From NCBI GenBank assembly GCA_002269645.1, contig NIVC01003879.1, positions 8,318 through 72,317 on the forward strand: 64,000 nucleotides of DNA, written 5' to 3'. Every line of letters starts with the position of its first letter. The first letter of the stretch is position 1. Below are positions 45,401 to 62,676 of this stretch, in pieces. The stretch comes from Macrostomum lignano (lineage: Eukaryota). The notes below the pieces were generated by a model. The model had not been told where the DNA came from. It saw nothing but the letters and a program-made list of their open reading frames with translations, and did no database searches. The position numbers and the translations under genes were made by a program.

Positions 45401-48400
45401 TAAAAATCTCAATTCCAAAATTCCCATTGTGAGAAATCGCCTTTAAAAATCCCAATTCCAAAATTCCCATTGTAAGAAATCGCCTTTAAAAATCCCAATT
45501 CAAATTAATATTGAGAGAAATCTCATTTAAAAATCCCAATTCCAAAATCCCAAGGGGAGAAATCTCATTTAAAAATCCCAATTCCAAAATTCCTATTGGG
45601 AGAAATCGCCTTTAAAAATCCCAATTCCAAAATTCCCATTGGGAGAAATCACCTTTAAAAATCCCAATTCCAAAATTCCCATTGGGAGAAATCGCCTTTA
45701 AAAATCCCAATTCCAAAATTCCCATTGGGAGAAATCGCCTTTAAAAATCCCAATTCCAAAATCCCAATGGGGAGAAATCTCATTTAAAAAATCAAAATCC
45801 AAAATCCCAATGGGGAGAAATCTCATTTAAAAATATCCCAATTCCAAAATTCCCATTGGGAGAAATCGCCTTTAAAAATCCCAATTCCAAAATCCCAATG
45901 GGGAGAAATCTCATGTAAAAATCCCAAATCTAAAAACCCAAAGAAACTATGGAATATAAAATGAATGTCAACTTAAACTCCGCAGGCGGATCCGGTGGCA
46001 GCGGTGGCGCTTCATCTCGCCGTCTGGAGCGCGCCCTGCACCAGCTGGAGGAGCTGTCCAATCAGCTGGCAAAGCCCGACCCGGAATTCTACCCGTTTAG
46101 GCGTAGATTATTTTTTGCTTGCAGCCTGCCGCCAGTCTGGCGACTTCAGCTGGATTTAGCTGACGCACTGGTAGCTGTTGGAGCCGTGAGCTCAGCCTTG
46201 GATATCTATCTGCGCTGGGATAGCTATTCTCAAATTATTGCCTGCTATCAGAAATTGGACAAGCCCGCTTTAGCGGAGAAGATTATTAGAGATCGATTGG
46301 CTGAGTCTGAGACGCCCGAGCTGTACTGCGCGCTTGCCGAGGTTACAAGGTGAGAGGGAGACGTTTTTTGAGAACGGTATGACCGATGCAGGATCAAGGA
46401 TAGTGTCCAGCGTCAAGAATCTGACATTAAAGTGTTCCCAATCTATTAGGTGCCATTTCCAATCTATTTAGTGCCATTTCCGATCTTTTAGGTGCCATTT
46501 CCTATCTATTAGGGTGCCATTTTCTATCTATTAGGGTGCCATTTCCAATCTATTAGGTGCTATTTCCAATCTATTTAGTGCCATTTCCGATCTTTTAGGT
46601 GCCATTTCCTATCTATTAGGTGCCATTTCCTATCTATTAGGGTGCCATTTCCTATCTATTAGGGTGCCATTTCCTATCTATTAGGTGCCATTTCCAATCT
46701 ATTTGGTGCCATTTCCGATCTATTAGGGTGCATACATGCGCAACCTCTGAAATTCGGTCGGCCATGCGACTTAGTTTTAACAAAAATGCGACGTAGTTTT
46801 TGGCCAAAAATGCGACTTACATGTAAAAAAACCATAAAGCAAAATTAACGCAACTTTGGGTAAACGGCAGGAGTAACTATGACTGTCTTATTAAGCCAAT
46901 ATGCCTCGTCAGCTACTTAGTACTACTACCTGATTATTTTTTCGGGTGGGCATTTTTGCGACTTCCTTGGTTGGCCGCCAAATCGGTCGGCCGGATCGGC
47001 CGACTCGGCCGACTGTTGCGCATGTATGTTAGGGTGCCATTTCCAATCTATTTGGTGCCATTTCCGATCTATTAGGCTGCCATTTCCAATCTATTTGGTG
47101 CCATTTCCGATCTATTAGGCTGCCATTTCCAATCTATTTGGTGCCATTTCCTATCTATTAGGGTGCCATTTTCTATCTATTAGGGTGCCATTTCCAATCT
47201 ATTAGGTGCCATTTCCAATCTATTTAGTGCCATTTCCGATCTTTTAGGTGCCATTTCCTATCTATTAGGGTGCCATTTCCTATCTATTAGGGTGCCATTT
47301 CCAATCTATTTGGTGCCATTTCCTATCTATTAGGGTGCCATTTCCAATCTATTTGGTGCCATTTCCGATCTATTAGGGTGCCATTTCCAATCTATTTGGT
47401 GCCATTTCGATCTTTTAGGTGTCATTTCCGATCCATTATATTAGGATGCCGATTCTGATCTATTAGGGTGCCATTTCCGATATATTAGGTGCCATTTCCG
47501 ATCCAGAGGTTCCATAGAGACATTGTTACTCACCCCCATGCCACTCCCACTGTCAGAGACTGGAACCACCTGCACACTGCCTGGCGCCTATCCAACGGTC
47601 GATGCGCTCGTGCCGCTCGTTCCCTAGGCTACGTTGCCATGGTAGCCGGGCAATACGCCGAAGCTATGCGCCAGTTCGAGCTGGCACTAGCCGCCAATCA
47701 CCTGCAGCCGAAGGCCTGGTTCACCTACGGCTGCTGCTGTTTGCAAGCTGGCGAAATTGAAAAAGCCGAGCTTGCATTCCGCCGCTCCGCTCAACTGGAA
47801 CCGGACAACTACGAGGCCTGGACCAATTTGGGCACCGCTATGGTTCGTCGGGGCAATAAAATTGGCGCCTGTTCGGCGCTCCGCGAAGCGCTCAAATCTA
47901 ATTGGGAACAATGGCGCGTCTGGGATAATTATCTGGCTGTATGCGCCGATACTGGTCAGTTTAATGAGGCCATGCGAGCTTATCATCGATTATTGGAACT
48001 GCGGCCCAAATATTGGGATCCTCACTCTGCCGGGGTGCTCATTCGGGCAGCTTCTTCTGATGAGGAACTGATTGAGGATTCCGCTGCAAGGGAAGACCTG
48101 CGCAGGCGCCTGTTGACTCTGTTTGCTCGGGTGGCTGCGCAGTCCAGCGGCGATGCAGAGTTCTGGTGGCTGTACGCTAAGCTGCTGAGTCTGACTGAAG
48201 AGGGAGAGACAGGTGAGTGACTGGGGGTGAGACTGCTTTGACATGTGAGTCAGGTAGCTGATAGAGTGAGAGTCAGGTAGCTGATAGAGTGAGAGTCAGG
48301 TGGCTGATAAAGTGAGAGTCAGGTAGCTGATAGAGTGAGAGTCAGGTAGCTTATAAAGTGAGAGTCAGGTAGCTGATAGAGTGAGAGTCAGGTAGCTGAT

Positions 48401-51410: not shown

Positions 51411-51460
51411 CATGATTCACCATTCCAGCCGCTAAGTCCCCATCGTGAACAACCGTAGCC

Positions 51461-52606
51461 ATGGGTCGAGTCCGCACCAAAACTGTGAAGAAGGCCGCCC
51501 GGGTGATCATCGAGAAGTACTACACCAGGCTGGGCAACGATTTCCACATCAACAAGCGCGTCTGCGAAGAGGTCGCCATCATCCCGTCCAAGGCGTTGCG
51601 CAACAAAATTGCCGGCTTCCTCACCCACCTGATGAAGCGAATCCAGCGCGGCCCGGTGCGCGGCATCTCCATCCGTCTGCAGGAGGAGGAGCGCGAACGG
51701 CGGGACAACTACGTGCCCGAGGTGTCCGCTCTCGACGCCGAACAGCTGGAAGTTGATCCTGTCACCAGCCAGATGCTGCGGGCGATGGAGCTGAGCGTTG
51801 AGGTGCTCACTTATTTATGGCATTCACGCTGCCTGCATCTCGCTTTCCTGTGTCTGTTGGTGGCACTCAAGTCTCCCCCTCCCACCGTGTCACTGTCCAC
51901 GTCTCGGAAATCCGGGGACTACTTCACCTCTTTCTGCTGTTCTCTTTGTGTCACCTCCCACTTTCCCTCTCTCCCTCTCACTTTCCTCTCCTCACATTCC
52001 TCTCCTCTGCCTCTCCTCTCACTCTCACTCTCCTCTCTCTCACTCTCCCTCTCCCTCTCCTCACCCCCTCACTCCCTCTTCCTCTCCTCTCACTCTCCCT
52101 CTCACTCCCTCTCCCTCTCCTCTCACTCTCCTTTCGCTCTCCCTCTCACTCCCCTCTTCCTCTCCTCTCAATCTCCCCCTCACTCTCCCTCTCCTCTTCC
52201 TCTCTTCTCCCTCTCCTCTTCCTCTCCTCTCACTCCCCTCTTCCTCTCCTCTCACTCCCTCTCCCTCTCTTCTCACTCTCCCTCTAGCTCACTCCCTCTC
52301 CCTCTCCTCTCACTCTCCTCTCACTCTCCCTCTCCTCTTCCTCTCTTCTCCCTCTCCTCTTTCTCTCCTCTGACTCCCCTCTTCCTCTCCTCTCACTTTC
52401 CCTCTCACTCCCTCTCCCTCTCTTATCCTTCTCTCTCCCTCTATCTTCTCACTCTCCGTCCCCCTCTCACTCTCCCTGTTCTCTCCTTCCCCTCTCCTGT
52501 TTTTTTCCCACTCATCCCACTGATCTAGGAACGTCACTCCTTTGCTCAATTTGGTAATTCATAGTCTAAAATACATTCAAATTTTCAGGTGACTGAAATC
52601 CAATGA
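51461..52606 (+). CDS. RPS17: 40S ribosomal protein S17 (eS17), 119 aa
   Basis: [21 protein letters not shown]...[43 protein letters not shown] is unmistakable. Exon 1 is 51461-51802. The inferred last exon is 52589-52606 (VTEIQ*) after attttcag; its boundary is less certain. Confidence 0.95.
51950..52500. repeat. TC-rich low-complexity tract in the RPS17 intron
   Basis: Nearly pure C/T (ctctcactcccctcttc...). Confidence 0.9.
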
Positions 52607-54218: not shown

Positions 54219-54988
54219 TGTTGTGTAATGCAAAATCTCCGGGGGGCGGCTCGTGATCCTCGAGCAGCTACGGCCTCCTAAGACTAAATACCAGGGTACA
54301 AGTACCCCTTCAGGGTGGCGAGCCAGTGATGGCGTCCGACACTCTGACCGAGCTGCCGGTGTCGGGCGGTGCGTACCATCGCCTCTCGTTCCTAGCCAGC
54401 AGCTCGTCCCTACGGCAGTACCCGATACAGTATGTCTCGTACTGAACAATGAACAACACAACGAGACTCAAGTTCTTACTGAGGAATGAACACGGCGGCG
54501 AATTAGGACTAGCCGGTAGCGCGGATTCTCAGACGTTGCGTACCCGTAGGGGCGTCTCGGTTCTAATCGATATGGGCAGTGGAATCTCAGAGCTGAGTTG
54601 GGTTGGAAGGTAGCAGCCAAAGTTGGTCCCTCACTGCCGCTACACCGCGCTAAATATATATTTGGGTTGGCCGGCTAGGCCGCGGGGAATCGCCCCCCGC
54701 GCCCACCCGACCAGCCACACAACCAGCTTAGCACATTACAGCGAGAAAGCTGCTGATTGGCCGGCGCGTGAGAGAGGCGGCCCGTACCAATCAGCAGCTG
54801 CGCAAGAGACGGAAAACTTGGGGGGGACGCGCTGAGAGGGGTGGCGCAGCCAGCCAAAGCCGGCTGGCTCAGACAGACTGGGGTGGGTGGTGCATAAACA
54901 ACTGAGGAGGGAAAGTGCAGTGTCCCAGTGCGCCAATTAACTGCAAGCCTGAGATCGCTAGGCAGTGAAATTACACTACGGCACAACA
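54219..54988 (-). repeat. 3' LTR (770 bp)
   Basis: TGTTGTG...CACAACA (7-bp terminal inverted repeat). It is a direct repeat of 61901-62676. Confidence 0.95.
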
Positions 54989-55002
54989 CCCTCCCCCCTC
55001 CC
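54989..55002 (-). promoter_or_regulatory. Polypurine tract
   Basis: Minus strand GGGAGGGGGGAGGG directly precedes the 3' LTR. Confidence 0.9.
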
Positions 55003-55735: not shown

Positions 55736-55834
55736 TCCGAGCGCAAAGTGGATCCGAGAGTCACATGAGCCGGGCAGTTGCGGGGTTTGACGGTCTCAAA
55801 TAGAACGGTGAATTCACTACCGACACACAGGCTT

Positions 55835-56788
55835 CTACGCGACTACGCCGTCCAGGACAACTGGGGCAACTAGGGCATCTAGGTCTTCTTGAGGGCATTC
55901 TGGGTCGAGGAAATCCGCTTCATCGACGGCCTTCTCTGCCTGGTCTTTGGACTTCGAGTCCGGGGCCACTAGTACCGTTAGCTCTCGGAGTTTTGACAGG
56001 AGTGCCCCGCCGTTCAGCAGGCTCATTTTCTTGATGCATGTCATTACAAATCCGATTGATGCAGTCAGCGCTTCGTTCGACAGCACTCGAAGGCCCCGCC
56101 TAGATGACCCTGGGCGGCGCTTTCGAGGTGACACATCAGACGCTATGAAACTCAGCGCAACCCCTAGAGAATCGGAGACCCATCGCCGAGATTCCAGGCC
56201 TGCCAAAAGGAACAGTTCTTCCAGTCCTGATATGCATTCCTGCGCCTGAGCGATCCGACCGATCCGCAGATGCTGGGCCAGGTGATTCCGGAGGCTTCTG
56301 TATCTGACCTCAATCGACTCAGGGACTCTTGGTGGGCCTGATCGCGCGACCATTAAGACTCCACCCGCCGGCGCAATTGGGGTCGCATCAACGGCGGGAG
56401 GTTCGTCTTCATCGTCACTGATGACCACGATCCCCATGCTCTCGAGTCCGGCTCTTATTTCGTCCGGAAAACTGACTCCGGGTGGCGGGCTGAAGAACTG
56501 CGCGTACGATAGCGTGTTGCTCAGGGCTGCTTAACCGAATTTGTCGTATAGCGCTCTATAAAACGGGTCGCTCAGGACTGAATACGCGAATACCACCCGT
56601 TGGTAGGCCCCTGTGCTTCCGACGCCCACCTTGTCGGGGCGAAGTAGTAGTGAGCGCCGACGGAAGGCCACCTTTATGTCTCTCGGTGAAGCTGATTGAG
56701 CTACGCCGAGCAGGTCGTGCAGATCCGACACTGCAAGGCCAGCGTTCAACTTGCAGGCACCCCAAAAAATGGAACTTGCTAAACGCAT
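55835..56788 (-). pseudogene. Cargo J-domain (DnaJ/Hsp40) protein of 317 codons, interrupted by one in-frame TAA at 56533-56531
   Basis: J-domain: DLHDLLGVAQSASPRDIKVAFRRRSLLLRPDKVGVGSTGAYQRVVFAYSVLSDPFYRALYDKFG. After the TAA, 31 open in-frame codons (AALSNTLSYAQFFSPPPGVSFPDEIRAGLES) lead straight into ORF 56437-55835. Confidence 0.8.
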
Positions 56789-57081
56789 GAAAATACAATT
56801 ACAACTGGATGAAAATACGAACCCGTACTGTACTCAGCAACTTGGAGGCGCGATGAGAAGGGTGAGAAAATGCACATCCCAGAGCGATTGATGGACAGAT
56901 TGGCTCAGATTAATAGAGGATTGGGTCTCCGAATCGACGTGGCGGAATTCCTCGATTCGCACGAACAGGGCGACAATTGAAATCCTGCTCGGGAGGAGCG
57001 GCTACACGAGGCTGATGGTGTGTGATGCGCTGTGCCCAAATGGGCTCTGGGTCCAATTCAGCGTCACTGTTCTGCTCAGAT

Positions 57082-60000
57082 TCAAAAAACTGGCATTGGG
57101 GGATTAGGAGCTTCCGGGCGGGAATATCGCTCACGTGACCTGGTTCCCGCCGTTGCCTGAGTCCTCCTTTGAGCAGGAACGTGGGACCTAGAGCTGGCAT
57201 CGATTTTCCTTAGGTTGTTGAAATGGACTACCCTAGGCCTTCGCGCACCATCGTGCAGGATTCTGTAATTGACATCGGAAAACTTTTTTAGGACTTTGGC
57301 CGGGCCTTTCCAATAGCGGTGGAACTTCGGGATTTCATTCGGTTTAATCACGGGATCGTATTCTAGAACAAGATCACCTTCATTGATCTGAGCGCCACGA
57401 GCTTGGCTGTCATAAAGCTTCTTTTGCTTCCTCTGATAGGTTCTGAGATTCTCCCTCACAGCCTCGTGTGCTTGCTGAAGGTCTTCAGTCAGTCGACGAG
57501 TGAACTTGGAGAAACTCTCTGGCACCCTCTCAGTCGGATTCTCAATGTCGATCGGGAGCTGCATTTCCCTACCAAACAGAATGTAGTGCTAGCCTGTGCC
57601 TCTATGCACGCTAGAACGATAGGCTAGCAAACCGGGCGCAATGCAGTCTTCCCAATCCTTGTCCTCCTGCTCTAACTGACACGTTAACATGTGCTTTAGA
57701 GTCCTATTAAAGCTTTCTGCTTGCCCATCCGCCATCGGATGATACGGAGTGGTTCGACACTTGCGGATGTCTAGCAGAGAACAAAGGTTCTTCATCAATG
57801 CTGACTCAAAATTTGATCCCTGATCAGTGACTATCTCCTGTGGACAACCGAATGATGAAATCCAGTGCGTGAAGATTGCACGGGCTACTGTTTTGGCACG
57901 CTGATTTGCTAACGGGATTGCACACGGCCATTTACTGAATGCGTCTTGGATTGTCAAAACAAATCTCGACCCATGCTTGGACTTCGGCAAAGGACCAATG
58001 ATGTCGCACATGATTCTTTGAAACGGAAATGAGCTCGGGATGGGTTGCAGTGGTGCCCTGCCTCTTGGCGATGGTTTGCACTTTGAGCACACTAGACATG
58101 TTCGGCAGCACTCCTCAACTCTACGAGACAGACCAGGCCACAAAAAGCGTTGCTTAAACTTTCCTTGAGTCTTCTTAACTCCGAGGTGGCATCCACTGAC
58201 GCCATCATGAAGGATTTTGGCGGCTTCTTCTAACAGGGAATTTGGTAGGAGGATTCTCTTCTGTGAGTTCTCTGGCACTGTCAGGAGCAGTAGCCCATCT
58301 TCTAAGACTATTCGAGTCCTATGGGCCCAGATCTCTCTCTCTCAACTAAACTACTGATCGGTTCATTTTGCAGCGCTTCACCTTCAAGTAACTGCCTTAC
58401 TCGTTTCAGAGCTGGGTCAATTCTCTGAGCCTCTCTGATGCACTTGACGCTGAGAGGTGATGCTAACACAGCGTTCACTTGTTCAGGTGTTTGTGGCGAA
58501 CTGTTACAGGAAGGGCACGACTCTTGGGCCCAATGCTTTCGAACTTTACGAGACACTGTCCGCATTCTGGTGAAAAATCCCTTTCCTGTGAACTATTTCA
58601 AACTCAAAACGCTGTAGCGTCTCTAGCCATCGAGCGCACTGTCCTTCCACATCTTTGAGGTTCGTTAACCATGACAACGCACTGTGATCTGTTCGGATTT
58701 TAAATTTGCGCCCCAAGAGGTAATATTTGTAGGCCTTGACGAAGTGCACGATCGCAAGAAGTTCTAGTCTAGTCGTACAGTAGTTCTTTTCACACTCTGT
58801 CAGGGTCCTTGACCCATAGACAATCTCACTTTTTCGGAGCCGTCGGCTTGCACCTGAGACAGGACAGCTCCAATTCCTATTTTGGAACTCGCGTCGGTGT
58901 CAAGCACATACTGTCCAGCTGTTTCGGAAAAATCTGGGTAAGCCATCACTCCAGTCGAAATCAGAAGTCTCTTTAATTCACAGAATGCTCCTTGCTGCTC
59001 CCGGCCCCACTCGAACTTGGTGTTCTGGCGCAGGAGTTTGTACAGCGGAGCTGCTATGATCGAGAAATCACGGATGAAATTTCTGTAATAAGAACAGAGA
59101 CCAAGGAATGATTGTAGCTCTTTGACACAACTCGGAATAGGCCAATCGCTAATCTCTTTCGTTTTCGCTGGATCTGTAGCTATTCCTTCCGCTGAAACTA
59201 CGTGGTCTAAAAACTTTGCCTCTTTGGACAGAAAATGGCACTTCTTTGCTTTCAGACGGATTCCTGCAGCTCGCAATCGGTCGAACCGGTCGAACACGTG
59301 CTGCAGTCTCTTAAAATGCTCTTCATAGGACTTCGCAAAAACTATAATGTCATCAAAGTACACAAGGCACTCCTTCCATGACAGGCCAGTCATAACTAGG
59401 TTCATGAGCTTTACAAATGTGGCTGGGGCATTTTTCAGCCCAAAACTAACATAGCGCCACGCGAACTGACCGCGGTTTGGGATGACAAACGCTGTCTTCA
59501 ACTGGTCTCTACGGTCCAGGGGGCACTGATGGTAGCCTGACGCTAGGTCCAGAGTGGAGAATACAGCGTTTCCTGATAGAGCTTCAAGCGTCTCGTCCAT
59601 CCTAAGTGGAGGGAAAGGATCAGGAACGGTGACGTCATTTAGCCTACGATAGTCCAAGCATAAGCGGATAGAGCCGTCTTTCTTCCGAACAGGTACAACC
59701 GGGCTGACCCAAGGAGACTGGCATTCATAGATCCTGTCGCATTCGAGCAGTCTATCAATCTCCTTGTCGATCTCCGGGCGCAGATGAAGTGGGATGCGCC
59801 GCGGGGCTCGCGGGTCGGCTTCGCTGAGCCGGTGTCAATGGTGTGCATTGCTAAATCAGTGGCGCCTAACTCACTGTCATCTTTTGCAAAAACGTCTCGA
59901 TTTCGGCGAATCAATTCAGTGAATGAACCTTGCTGCTCTGGTGTCAAATCTGTTGACTCCCAGCTGCCGAGATTACTGACTGGGTCCCAACTGGTGTCAA

Positions 60001-60820
60001 GGGTAACCAAGTTAGCCTGTGCTGCAGGTTTCACTTCCTGAGCAGGAGGTTGGCTATCGTTTACAGGGGTGAACCAACCAACTTGCCTTCCTCTGGGCAG
60101 GGTCACTGGTTCGCCTAAGATGTTGGTTACTTTAATCGGCAAAAATCCTTCAGCTGATGGGATGCCAATGGCTCTGGCCAATAACACTAATCCTTCATTC
60201 TGATAACGAGTCTCTGTTATTCCTGTGAACTGGAAATTCCGGACACCTTTTCGACTTAATTTGGCCTGAATGATTTGGGATCTATTGTTGGGGACCGTTA
60301 CCGATTTCGGGATGACAATCCGGCAGAGAATAGGTCGCTCAGTTGTCATCCGAAATTGGAAGGTACCGTTCGATGTGGTGACTTGAAAGTTTGCAAAATC
60401 TAGCGTAGCTGCTTGACGACGAAATAAATCTGCTCCGAGGATGCATGGATTCAAGAGACTGGAGACGATTGTAAATTTGTGACTGAATTTTAGAGAGCCA
60501 ATAAAAAATTCCACAACGCACTCGCCCAGCACATCAATCGCATCACCATTAGCAACTTAAATGTTTGGTCCGATGGAACTCGGCACTAGCATGGATCTAG
60601 GCAGATTATTTTTCCAAACTCTCTCACTCAACAGGGGTGTACTGGCACCCGTGTCGAGCAAACACGTGATCTTGGCTTTCTCGGAAAAGCGGATGTCAAC
60701 AAAACCGAGTTCTGTACTGGATTCATGGGCGGGCTGGCTCGGTGCGCTGGGTTGGGCCTCTACTAGTGACTGGCTTGGGACCCTGGATGGCCCTGCCTCC
60801 AGGTCCCTCTCTCGTTTCCC
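57082..60820 (-). pseudogene. pol: Gypsy pol (protease, RT, RNase H, integrase), disrupted by stops and frameshifts
   Basis: Protease LLDTGA; RT DYRRLN, LDLASGYHQ, FGLKNAPATF, VYFDDIIV; RNase H LDTDAS, TDHSALSWL; integrase HLGVKKT...CRTCLVC, DIIGP, IVTDQGSNFES, GQAESFNRTL; GPY/F-like WKGP. An in-frame TAA lies at ~60557, with frameshifts near 59810, 58800, 58560 and 57590. Confidence 0.92.
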
Positions 60821-61730
60821 ATCTGTTGATCCCTCGCTAGCTGCTGACACCTGGCTTTGACGTGGTTCGGCCTTCTGCAGTAGCTGCACACTATTGGGTT
60901 CCTACACTGACGGGTCACGTGATTGGTCCCAAAGCGTCGACCACACTGAACAGCTCTATGAGTCGGTGCTGCGGCCTGGGTAGGTTGGGGATTTGGGTGC
61001 TCACGATGGCTGACTCCTGCACCCGGCCTAGCCTTCAAGGCCTGCAGCTCCAATCTCAGCTCTTTCAGTTCTTCGCGGAGTCTGACTGTCTCATCTTGCG
61101 TAGTGGACGAGTTCACTGAGGGCCATGGCTTCTCGGTGCTTGCCTGAGCTGTGCGGAGGGATGCCACACTCTGTCTTACCCGCCTACAAGTTGCGTCGAG
61201 GGTCTCTGGCTCCTGCAGTAGCAAGTGCTCACGAACTCTATCGGCAATTCTAGCACCTAGCAGGAACCGGTCCCTGGCCAACTCATCTCTCTGATCTGCC
61301 GGCAGGTTCGGATAGGCCCGACGGACAATTTCGCGAAGGGCGTCGGCATAGCTTTCCACTGACTCATCCTTCTTTTGGTCCCGACTCCTCAATTCGATCT
61401 TACTGTCTTGCGGGGTGTGATGCTGGTTGAATCGTTGTGAAAGGCGTTCAACAAAATCTTCAAACTCTAGATCGTCCGACAGTTCAAGATTGGCAATAGC
61501 TCGATAAGCTGTATTGAAGTCCATCAGGCTAATTAGGTGCTGCTTCCTGTCTTCTTCAGGGATCTCTGCAATCAATCTCTGATCTCACAATACGCTGTAA
61601 ACTGCTGCATCCACAGTGCAAAATCCTGACTCAGCACAAACTTGGATGGTCGGGGCACTCTTTGCCCTACGTTCAAATTATTCTGCACTCTAGCTGTAAG
61701 CGCATTGATGAGGTCGTCAACGTTGGCCAT
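60763..61730 (-). pseudogene. gag: Gypsy gag with CCHC zinc knuckle; one frameshift near 61575
   Basis: ATG at 61730 (MANVDDLINALTAR...PRPSKF...DFALWMQQF). The frame changes at ~61575 into ORF 61575-60763 with QKKDESVESYADALR, RDRFLLG and CSYCRRPNHVKARC. Confidence 0.85.
60777..60820 (-). promoter_or_regulatory. Putative -1 ribosomal frameshift signal at the gag-pol junction
   Basis: G GGA AAC in gag phase (60820-60814), a 6-nt spacer, then the stem GGGACCTGGA...TCCAGGGTCCC. The -1 frame is the protease frame. Confidence 0.8.
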
Positions 61731-61880
61731 CGGGATTCGAAAGACAACTTAACAGGGAGAAAAGACTAAGAGATTGACCGGGATAGAGAAAGTGACAGAT
61801 TAACAGTGCATAGATCTAAGAGGCGCGCAAGCTGCTGACAAATAAAAATACAACCCAGGTTACAGTAAACTAAACTCCTA

Positions 61881-61898
61881 AATCCTGGTCACGGCACA
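61881..61898 (-). promoter_or_regulatory. Primer-binding site complementary to the 3' end of tRNA-His
   Basis: Plus strand aatcctggtcacggcaca matches the invertebrate tRNA-His 3' end AATCCTGGTCACGGCA(CCA), with the CCA imperfect. It lies 2 nt from the 5' LTR. Confidence 0.75.
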
Positions 61899-61900
61899 AG

Positions 61901-62676
61901 TGTTATGTAATGCGAAATCTCCGGGGGGCGGCTCGTGATCCTCGAGCAGCTACGGCCTCCTAAGACTAATACCAGAGTACAAGTACCCCTTCAGGGTGGC
62001 GAGCCAGTGATGGCGTCCGACACTCTGACCGAGCTGCCGGTGTCGGGCGGTGCGTACTATCGCTTCTCGTTCCTAGCCAGCAGCTCGTCCCTACGGCAGT
62101 ACCCGATACAGTATGTCCCGTACCGAACAATGAACAACACAACGAGACTCAAGTTCTTACTGAGGAATGAACACGGCGGGAGCGGCGGCGAAGGACTAGC
62201 CGGTAGCGCGGATTCTCAGACGTTGCGTACCCGTAGGGGCGTCTCGGTTCTAATCGATATGGGCAGTGGAATCTCAGAGCTGAGTTGGGTTGGAAGGTAG
62301 CAGCCACAGTTGGTCCCTCACCGCCGCTACACCGCGCTAAATATATATTTGGGTTGGCCGGCTAGGCCGCGGGGAATCGCCCCCGCGCCCACCCGACCAG
62401 CCACACAACCAGCTTAGCACATTACAGCGAGAAAGCTGCTGATTGGCCGGCGCGTGAGAGAGGCGGCCCGTACCAAACAGCAGCTGCGCAAGAGACGGAA
62501 AACTTGGGGGGGGGACGCGCTGAGAGGGGTGGCGCAGCCAGCCAAAGCCGGCTGGCTCAGACAGACTGGGGTGGGTGGTGCATAAACAACTCAGGAGGGA
62601 AAGTGCAGTGTCCCAGTGCGCCAATTAACTGCAAGCCTGAGATCGTTAGGCAGTGAAAGTACACTACGGCACAACA
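61901..62676 (-). repeat. 5' LTR (776 bp)
   Basis: TGTTATG...CACAACA. It differs from the other LTR by about 13 substitutions and ~4 indels (by-eye count). Confidence 0.95.

Follow-up and report, generated by a model that had tools for sequence, protein, structure and literature searches.

Results

A Ty3/Gypsy retrotransposon clade of M. lignano carries a third gene

The window (the whole 64,000-nucleotide stretch of Macrostomum lignano DNA analyzed here) contains a Ty3/Gypsy LTR retrotransposon with a broken copy of a third gene, ORF3, that is conserved in a clade of these elements. ORF3 runs to ~560–580 codons and is laid out as a J-domain, an acidic linker, a five-helix domain, and a TatD-like barrel. 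A preliminary description of this DNA had proposed that the family encodes an accessory J-domain gene. The cargo, far from being confined to this copy, occurs in nine families of the genome (A, B, D, G, H, I, K, K2, and M).

The window element spans 8.46 kb on the minus strand and, by Pfam and self-BLAST, has the order gag-PR-RT-RH-IN. It carries the paired TG...CA LTRs, primer-binding site (PBS), polypurine tract (PPT), and short target site duplication (TSD) of a Ty3/Gypsy element; the TSD is 4 bp in sister elements, and the left 4-bp flank of the window element agrees with the right at three positions. The two LTRs differ by 18 substitutions over 774 aligned bases. A pattern search for a priming tRNA returned 0 matches to the PBS-like motif. 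The clade may resemble Gmr1/Osvaldo. The features of the element are as follows.

61901..62676, minus strand: 5' LTR (TG...CA), 96.4% identical to the 3' LTR by self-BLAST
~62347, minus strand: TATA-like box of the 5' LTR, with no ATG from the box to the predicted donor
62154..62160, minus strand: predicted splice donor of the 5' LTR, an A followed by GTAAG, from sequence context
61882..61899, minus strand: PBS-like motif, common to sister families
60763..61731, minus strand: gag, with a frameshift near its start; weak Pfam PNMA, Retrotrans_gag, and zinc-finger matches at 60766–61584
56910..60901, minus strand: pol (protease, RT, RNase H, integrase); Pfam RVT_1, RT_RNaseH, Integrase_H2C2, rve, and Integrase_p58_C
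56730..56736, minus strand: predicted splice acceptor directly 5' of the J-domain, a YAG near the ORF3 start
56543..56725, minus strand: J-domain of ORF3 (PF00226)
56531..56533, minus strand: premature stop in ORF3, only in the window's insertion
56408..56431, minus strand: SIM-like motif IVVISDDE in the acidic linker, of putative function
55967..56302, minus strand: five-helix domain with no family assigned (8-row alignment; AlphaFold model of the family-I domain)
56125–56096, minus strand: basic loop of the five-helix domain, in the same place across aligned helical domains
55765..55865, minus strand: deletions (9+82 nt and 2 nt) as compared with C471
55139..55795, minus strand: TatD-like TIM barrel, the C-terminal part of ORF3 (PF01026 E=6.7e-8)
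54989..55002, minus strand: PPT
54219..54988, minus strand: 3' LTR

This copy is decayed throughout: pol, unbroken in a sister element, lies here in four frame pieces with several frameshifts and stops, and the gag ATG, at ~61730, is in another frame. The element is also a mosaic, with 66–86% identity to a family-A element across most of gag-RT-RH, 92–99% identity to family A in the integrase and ORF3, and an LTR of a different type. A recombination switch at 58400–58000 joins the LTR, gag, and RT of one family to a family-A integrase and ORF3. At all six other places examined that bear the window's LTR type (L159–L164), neither gag nor pol lies nearby. Elsewhere in the window, on the plus strand and among many minisatellite arrays, are a ribosomal protein S17e coding stretch (51449–51830, E=3.4e-60) and an exon of a TPR-repeat protein (47489–48220).

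The window copy is a shortened and broken ORF3

As first proposed, positions 56788–55835 form one minus-strand frame, in the sense orientation between the end of pol (~56910) and the PPT, with its sole internal stop at codon 86 (56533–56531). Pfam DnaJ matches residues 22–82 at 44.9 bits (cut-off 27.8; E=1.2e-11), giving profile support to a J-domain that had been recognized by inspection, and the HPD motif is replaced by RPD at 56641–56633. The stop and the RPD prove peculiar to one insertion. A DNA search of the genome with the window cargo returned 29 matches, and four places (the window, C340, C518, and C517) have a common flank and are thus one insertion; all four have RPD and the stop. 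The other four A/B copies examined (C471, C513, C441, and C525) all have HPD, and none has the codon-86 stop.

Two parts of the earlier account need revision. The protein of 317 aa that it proposed has an artificial end, at 55835, produced by deletions: relative to the C471 copy, the window lacks 9+82 nt near 55865–55842 and 2 nt near 55765, so that the first TatD strand is lost and an apparent 317-aa end is created. The TatD-like part, absent from that account, is the next frame after the J-domain frame, and the helical and TatD-like regions lie in a single frame in C471, C513, C441, and C525. The C471 copy has 583 codons counted from a 56788-type ATG and one stop, elsewhere than codon 86. 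Nor does the ATG at 56788 hold up as the start, because in both family-B copies the stretch ahead of the J-domain contains no in-frame Met.

ORF3 varies in domain content among nine families

Pairwise ORF3 identity between families is ~23–38%. Common to all nine are the J-domain, a linker that is acidic in every family but D, and the helical domain where the sequence reaches it; K2 is a fragment from the DnaJ search that ends before this domain. The TatD-like barrel is added in families A–D, with C seen as TatD remnants alone, and a chromodomain is inserted in K. Of the 22 contigs that protein searches found for the distant family D, 10 have an unbroken J-helical-TatD gene (558 aa from Met), and full elements of this family have 99–100% identical LTRs and 4-bp TSDs; family I ORF3 is unbroken in 15 of 22 places. 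These copy counts overstate insertions because the M. lignano assembly is redundant, as described in the available text of PMC12801592. Errors of assembly may account for many of the frameshifts seen in young copies.

We chose 20 elements among the 150 integrase matches listed. In eleven of them pol is followed by a J-domain ORF (families G, H, I, K, and M), and in nine it is not (F, N, O, P, and Q). On an RT tree of 20 rows with a midpoint root only, A, B, C, D, and the window element group with the ORF3-less F and N (100/97), G, H, I, K, and M form another group (86/95), and P, Q, and O fall outside; on the integrase tree we disregarded row L100, an unrelated upstream integrase. The simplest history compatible with these trees would be a single capture of the J gene, a later addition of TatD, and several losses.

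In family F (L131–L134), which the RT tree places as sister to D, the ORF3 position holds a 207–247-aa frame with no J, TatD, or Pfam match. L145 (C251) and L146 (C73) represent a Gypsy family with a pol frame of 1822–2206 aa and a ~640-aa post-integrase tail without a Pfam match. Families H and I (L139–L143) carry long GC-rich tandem repeats from ORF3 to the 3' LTR. A different multi-copy J-domain ORF, unrelated to ORF3, lies at C3488:57744–59300 (L192) and on C575, C1901, and C1744; it has an open frame of up to 1449 aa and 5 identical-scoring rows, and it is possibly element-borne or an amplified J-protein.

Proteins of 89–100% identity in UniRef and NCBI carry the M. lignano name, and ~60 of the 150 DnaJ matches listed in the genome look element-borne. 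Four public gene models (P0004, P0005, P0032, and P0033) splice ORF3 to host or pol exons, yielding chimeric "J domain-containing" proteins of 993–3511 aa. Searches beyond M. lignano, each of limited reach, turned up hardly any homologues. A search of 1.84 billion representatives gave 13 matches: 3 M. lignano models, 1 Logan protein, and 9 ordinary-looking TatD or DnaJ proteins. The Logan protein (P0006, 166 aa, from a 1208-base contig) is 51% identical to the family-D barrel and has no equally close match in the M. lignano genome; its source may be a related species or a family missing from the assembly. A near-length protein search with P0002 found 0 matches; a TatD profile run against longer proteins found 16, none TE-like besides an M. 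lignano model; and a helical-domain profile found 2, both from M. lignano. None of 211 candidates in a metagenome scan was an ORF3 relative, and the ESM Atlas gave two blanks.

The J-domain retains its Hsp70-recruiting motif in eight families

PF00226 scores exceed the cut-off in A, B, G, H, I, K, K2, and M (48–65 bits in G, H, I, K, and M; 63.6 in K2), and these same eight of the nine families keep HPD. Family D has a CPA-like sequence in place of HPD, and its J region scores 18.3 bits, under the cut-off. The C471 J-domain matches J-domains in the PDB down to E=4e-11. Recruitment of Hsp70 by J-domains is established (PMC11720896, available text), and conservation of HPD points to the same activity in the predicted ORF3 protein.

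On a J-domain tree, 10 element rows (L186, an element fragment, counted among them) cluster together (92/92, bootstrap unsettled), apart from 19 host and 2 outside J-domains, with the host side poorly resolved. The best host matches, at ~36–45% identity, are to several DnaJ proteins other than DNAJC9. A resemblance to DNAJC9 noted earlier by eye was not borne out: PF23302, the C-terminal domain of DNAJC9, has no match in the scanned ORF3s and 3 genomic matches elsewhere (C18, C721, and C1180), and host DNAJC9 (C18, L185), located via this domain, is not near the element J-domains on the tree. A DNAJC9 origin of ORF3 is not supported.

Reverse-transcribing viruses depend on Hsp70 and Hsp40, and HPD retention in eight of nine families would suit a co-chaperone working in the cytoplasm, where it would supply Gag/Pol with Hsp70 to assemble particles, fold RT, or uncoat. 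The recruitment of Hsc70 by viral J-domains (PMC11720896, available text) speaks for such a role. We nonetheless consider it quite unlikely, given that pol-intact young elements lack the J part of ORF3 (deleted family-A copies, F, and N), that family D thrives without HPD, and that the HP1-type chromodomain and SIM-like motif described below are hard to square with particle assembly. The preliminary description had suggested a role in Gag/VLP assembly or at chromatin; the former fits worse and the latter better, since young copies can do without the gene and an HP1-type chromodomain has been added in one family.

The TatD-like barrel has lost most metal ligands

PF01026 scores are 31.9–35.3 bits in A, B, and the window and 23.3 in D, and the top Foldseek matches of the C-terminal domain in a family-D ORF3 model are TatD structures (E~3e-6). 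Aligned with intact TatDs, the barrel still has the GE glutamate, and in A/B also the first HxH His. The second His of HxH, the GxHP His, two mid-barrel His residues, and the ETD Glu/Asp are replaced in all aligned element copies, with residue roles taken in part from the available text of PMC10085689. With most metal ligands replaced, the barrel is probably a non-catalytic pseudo-nuclease. Host TatD genes contain introns and reach at most ~27% identity to the element barrel, over a short stretch. The youngest family-A elements (L107 and L154–L156, on C222, C2475, C109, and C150) retain ~180 open codons of barrel.

The linker, helical domain, and a family-specific chromodomain

A hydrophobic-ISDD motif resembling a SIM occurs in the linker of five of the nine families (A, B, G, H, and I). 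Three deep families (A, G, and H) align on it within an otherwise unalignable linker. It is missing from K, where a chromodomain is present, and from D, in which HPD is also lost. The pattern was picked after the sequences had been seen, its single-sequence shuffle probabilities are 0.05–0.20, 7 pol proteins contain 3 matches, and four of the nine families are negative. The linkers themselves are strongly acidic, with up to 14 D/E per 20 residues.

AlphaFold models the helical domain of family I as five helices with a mean pLDDT of 84.5 and a core of ~95. Foldseek found no match at E≤0.001 in the PDB or BFVD, and the best VIA match (Z 8.5, rmsd 2.2, 80 aligned, to B12-binding cap bundles) lies below the chance level for helical bundles. 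As modeled, this is a novel or unclassified five-helix domain with no clear fold match. A suspected likeness to LEDGF/TFIIS-N did not figure among the fold-search rows.

In family K, ORF3 contains an HP1/Swi6-type chromodomain (PF00385 E=1.4e-12) whose best PDB matches are Swi6, CBX5, and CBX1 and which keeps two of three cage aromatics. It lies after the pol stop and is not fused to the integrase C-terminus. ORF3 does not appear to be an env gene, as no hydrophobic 19-mer exceeds 1.49 (maximum Kyte-Doolittle 1.04–1.49 in 7 ORF3s); no env Pfam match was found.

The chromodomain of family K, acidic linkers that could bind histones, and the basic loop of the helical domain all lend themselves to an integration cofactor, which would tether the pre-integration complex to chosen chromatin while Hsp70 opens nucleosomes, in the manner of DNAJC9 or the chromodomains of chromoviruses. 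Against this stand the lack of PF23302 in any scanned ORF3, the position of the host DNAJC9 J-domain outside the element J group, and the placement of the chromodomain in a separate gene rather than an integrase fusion; no known integrase-binding fold was among the rows listed by the helical-domain fold search. We judge such a cofactor improbable.

ORF3 is likely expressed from a spliced mRNA

In all nine families, an acceptor-like YAG is found no more than 16 nt from the ORF3 start (background 0.23 per 8-nt span), and in G, H, K, K2, and M the distance is at most 1 nt. A and B have no conserved ATG and instead show TG directly after the acceptor. In the window's lineage, A followed by the donor GTAAG occurs at 27 of the LTR sites examined, in three upstream contexts; it is missing from the L100 LTR, and the L164 match lies outside the LTR. 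Splicing from this donor to the acceptor would create an ATG at the point corresponding to the start of ORF3 in G and K2. An A likewise precedes the donor in G, K, and M, where a junction ATG is superfluous. These signals suggest that ORF3 is likely made from an env-like spliced subgenomic mRNA. A predicted UniRef gene model (P0007) joins the family-D LTR donor exactly to the ORF3 acceptor. Contigs from three presumed-RNA runs and one probable DNA run cover family-D ORF3 and show no splice joint, which weighs neither way.

Canonical three-unit heat-shock elements (HSEs) numbered 0 in 10 LTRs and 8 further LTR stretches, some of them partial. These elements are not the heat-inducible M. lignano family id38.

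The spliced-accessory layout, together with a basic loop and a ligand-less barrel that could bind RNA, also suggests a post-transcriptional factor, which would export or protect unspliced element RNA, as Cer1 CERV is said to do (cf. Rev), or divert Hsp70/Hsc70 from piRNA loading. The available text of 10.1101/423210 is in keeping with the last of these, in that Hsp70 collapses Drosophila piRNA biogenesis. This role strikes us as very doubtful, for it leaves the chromodomain unexplained, J-only families have no barrel, and elements without ORF3 still transpose.

Selection maintains a gene that individual elements can lose

Between families A and B, dN/dS is 0.06–0.13 in each of the J, helical, and TatD parts, with upper bootstrap bounds of at most 0.26; pS is 0.68–0.75, so that dS is near saturation, and pN is 0.16–0.21. 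The corresponding pol comparison gives 0.14–0.18. Within family D, two pairs give ORF3 values of 0.33 and 0.28 versus 0.14 for pol, and two decayed copies give 0.69 and 0.41; the window and C471 copies compare at 0.40. Judged by substitution rates, these data show purifying selection on ORF3, and the A–B divergence (dN/dS ~0.1) is not the neutral one that would mark a dead cargo. The several breaks in the window's insertion and the loss of the gene in some families might suggest a DnaJ/TatD fragment that was captured from the host and rides along as a neutral passenger. Frames remain open over nine families at ~23–38% identity with a dN/dS of ~0.1, and the element J-domains form their own group (92/92), with no close host source found. 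We rejected the passenger reading on the selection signal and hold it to be extremely improbable.

The gene can nevertheless be dispensed with in cis. The four youngest family-A elements examined (LTR identity 99.3–99.9%) have all lost the J and helical parts through a common ~1.1-kb deletion, and ORF3 is missing altogether from families F and N. Such dispensability fits action in trans, but also a weaker benefit. Hsp70 recruitment is moreover not the sole selected function, as the young, abundant family D keeps ORF3 under selection without HPD or the SIM-like motif.

Discussion

We tentatively favor, at somewhat short of even probability, a reading in which ORF3 acts in the nucleus as an adaptor, directing host Hsp70 to silenced chromatin and thereby relieving repression of the element. 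The chromodomain of family K and the SIM-like motif of A, B, G, H, and I would point to silenced chromatin as the target. A more specific version is rather unlikely in its full form: a modular anti-silencing co-chaperone, in which a J-domain dismantles silencing complexes in trans with the help of interchangeable heterochromatin-finding parts, namely a SIM, an HP1-type chromodomain, and a dead TatD barrel that would bind nucleic acid. Action in trans would explain the spread of copies without ORF3.

The proposed mechanism would begin with splicing from the LTR donor to the acceptor before the J-domain, the junction supplying the ATG in the window's lineage. The basic loop would then give nuclear entry, and the SIM-like motif, or in K the HP1-type chromodomain, would dock on SUMOylated or H3K9-methylated silencing machinery, with the TatD-like barrel serving as a putative non-catalytic nucleic-acid binder. 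HPD-dependent recruitment of Hsp70 might finally loosen the silencing complex, much as the J-domain of polyomavirus large T works with Hsc70. In Drosophila, effectors of piRNA-guided silencing use SUMO and SIMs, according to the available text of PMC8490990. Several observations argue against the anti-silencing adaptor. Family D prospers without HPD and the SIM-like motif, and the J part is missing from the four youngest family-A elements examined and from families F and N. By analogy, the plant precedent would also weigh against it: the Arabidopsis J-protein SILENZIO acts with HSP70 on TE chromatin as a repressor, not an activator (PMC8616336, available text).

Non-env third genes are an already known kind; the J-domain co-chaperone cargo is the new part. 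Known cases include the DEDDy exonuclease and GDSL esterase of bdelloid elements (PMC5408684) and the sense aORFs of plants (PMC7264820), as far as the available texts go. ORF3 resembles these extra ORFs in being sense-oriented, in following pol and preceding the 3' LTR, in having been gained and lost family by family, and in its expected spliced expression. Unlike them (intact enzymes and membrane proteins), it combines a J-domain core and a helical domain with a nuclease-like module lacking most ligands. With polyomavirus large T (PMC11720896, available text) it has in common that a mobile element encodes an HPD J-domain beside an unstructured linker with a short docking motif. Unlike viral J-domain proteins, it belongs to a different element class, is without a helicase or protease partner, and has an Hsp70-stimulating activity that is only predicted. 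Pestivirus Jiv/DNAJC14 is a further viral J-domain case, with the same likenesses and differences as large T.

Like DNAJC9, and like SILENZIO with MBD5/6 and HSP70 in the available text of PMC8616336, ORF3 couples a J-domain to chromatin-reading or acidic modules; unlike ORF3, both are host genes, SILENZIO represses TEs, and DNAJC9 has a C-terminal domain that ORF3 lacks. The barrel shares with HxH TatD nucleases (YcfH and TATDN2/3; PMC10085689, available text) the TIM fold, the GE glutamate, and, in A/B, the first HxH His, and it differs from them in that most metal ligands are replaced. The heat-inducible, HSE-bearing LTR retrotransposons of M. lignano (PMC12801592, available text) share species, superfamily, and a link to the heat-shock machinery with ORF3 elements. 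Unlike their family id38, with LTRs of ~337 bp, ORF3 elements have LTRs of ~700–800 bp and no canonical HSE. Unlike in chromoviruses, the family-K chromodomain lies in ORF3 and not at the integrase C-terminus.

Our literature search found no earlier description of a DnaJ- or TatD-bearing LTR retrotransposon; Repbase, Dfam, and GyDB were outside that search. Neither "DnaJ" nor "TatD" occurs in the available texts of PMC5408684, PMC6338049, PMC6431247, and PMC13524379 or in the available main text of PMC12801592; "ORF" likewise has 0 occurrences in the latter, and "DnaJ" has 0 in the available text of PMC7264820.

Hsp70 is already linked to transposon control, on the host side. To our knowledge, silencing suppressors encoded by animal transposons have rarely been described, and an anti-silencing co-chaperone would, if true, be the first chaperone-based counter-defense of an animal transposon. 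A clade that keeps its own J-domain gene over deep divergence and swaps chromatin-reader modules would open chaperone-based anti-silencing to direct tests in a flatworm for which transgenesis and RNAi exist. Besides contributing an unclassified helical domain, the clade warns annotators of element-borne DnaJ genes and of host-exon fusions in gene models.
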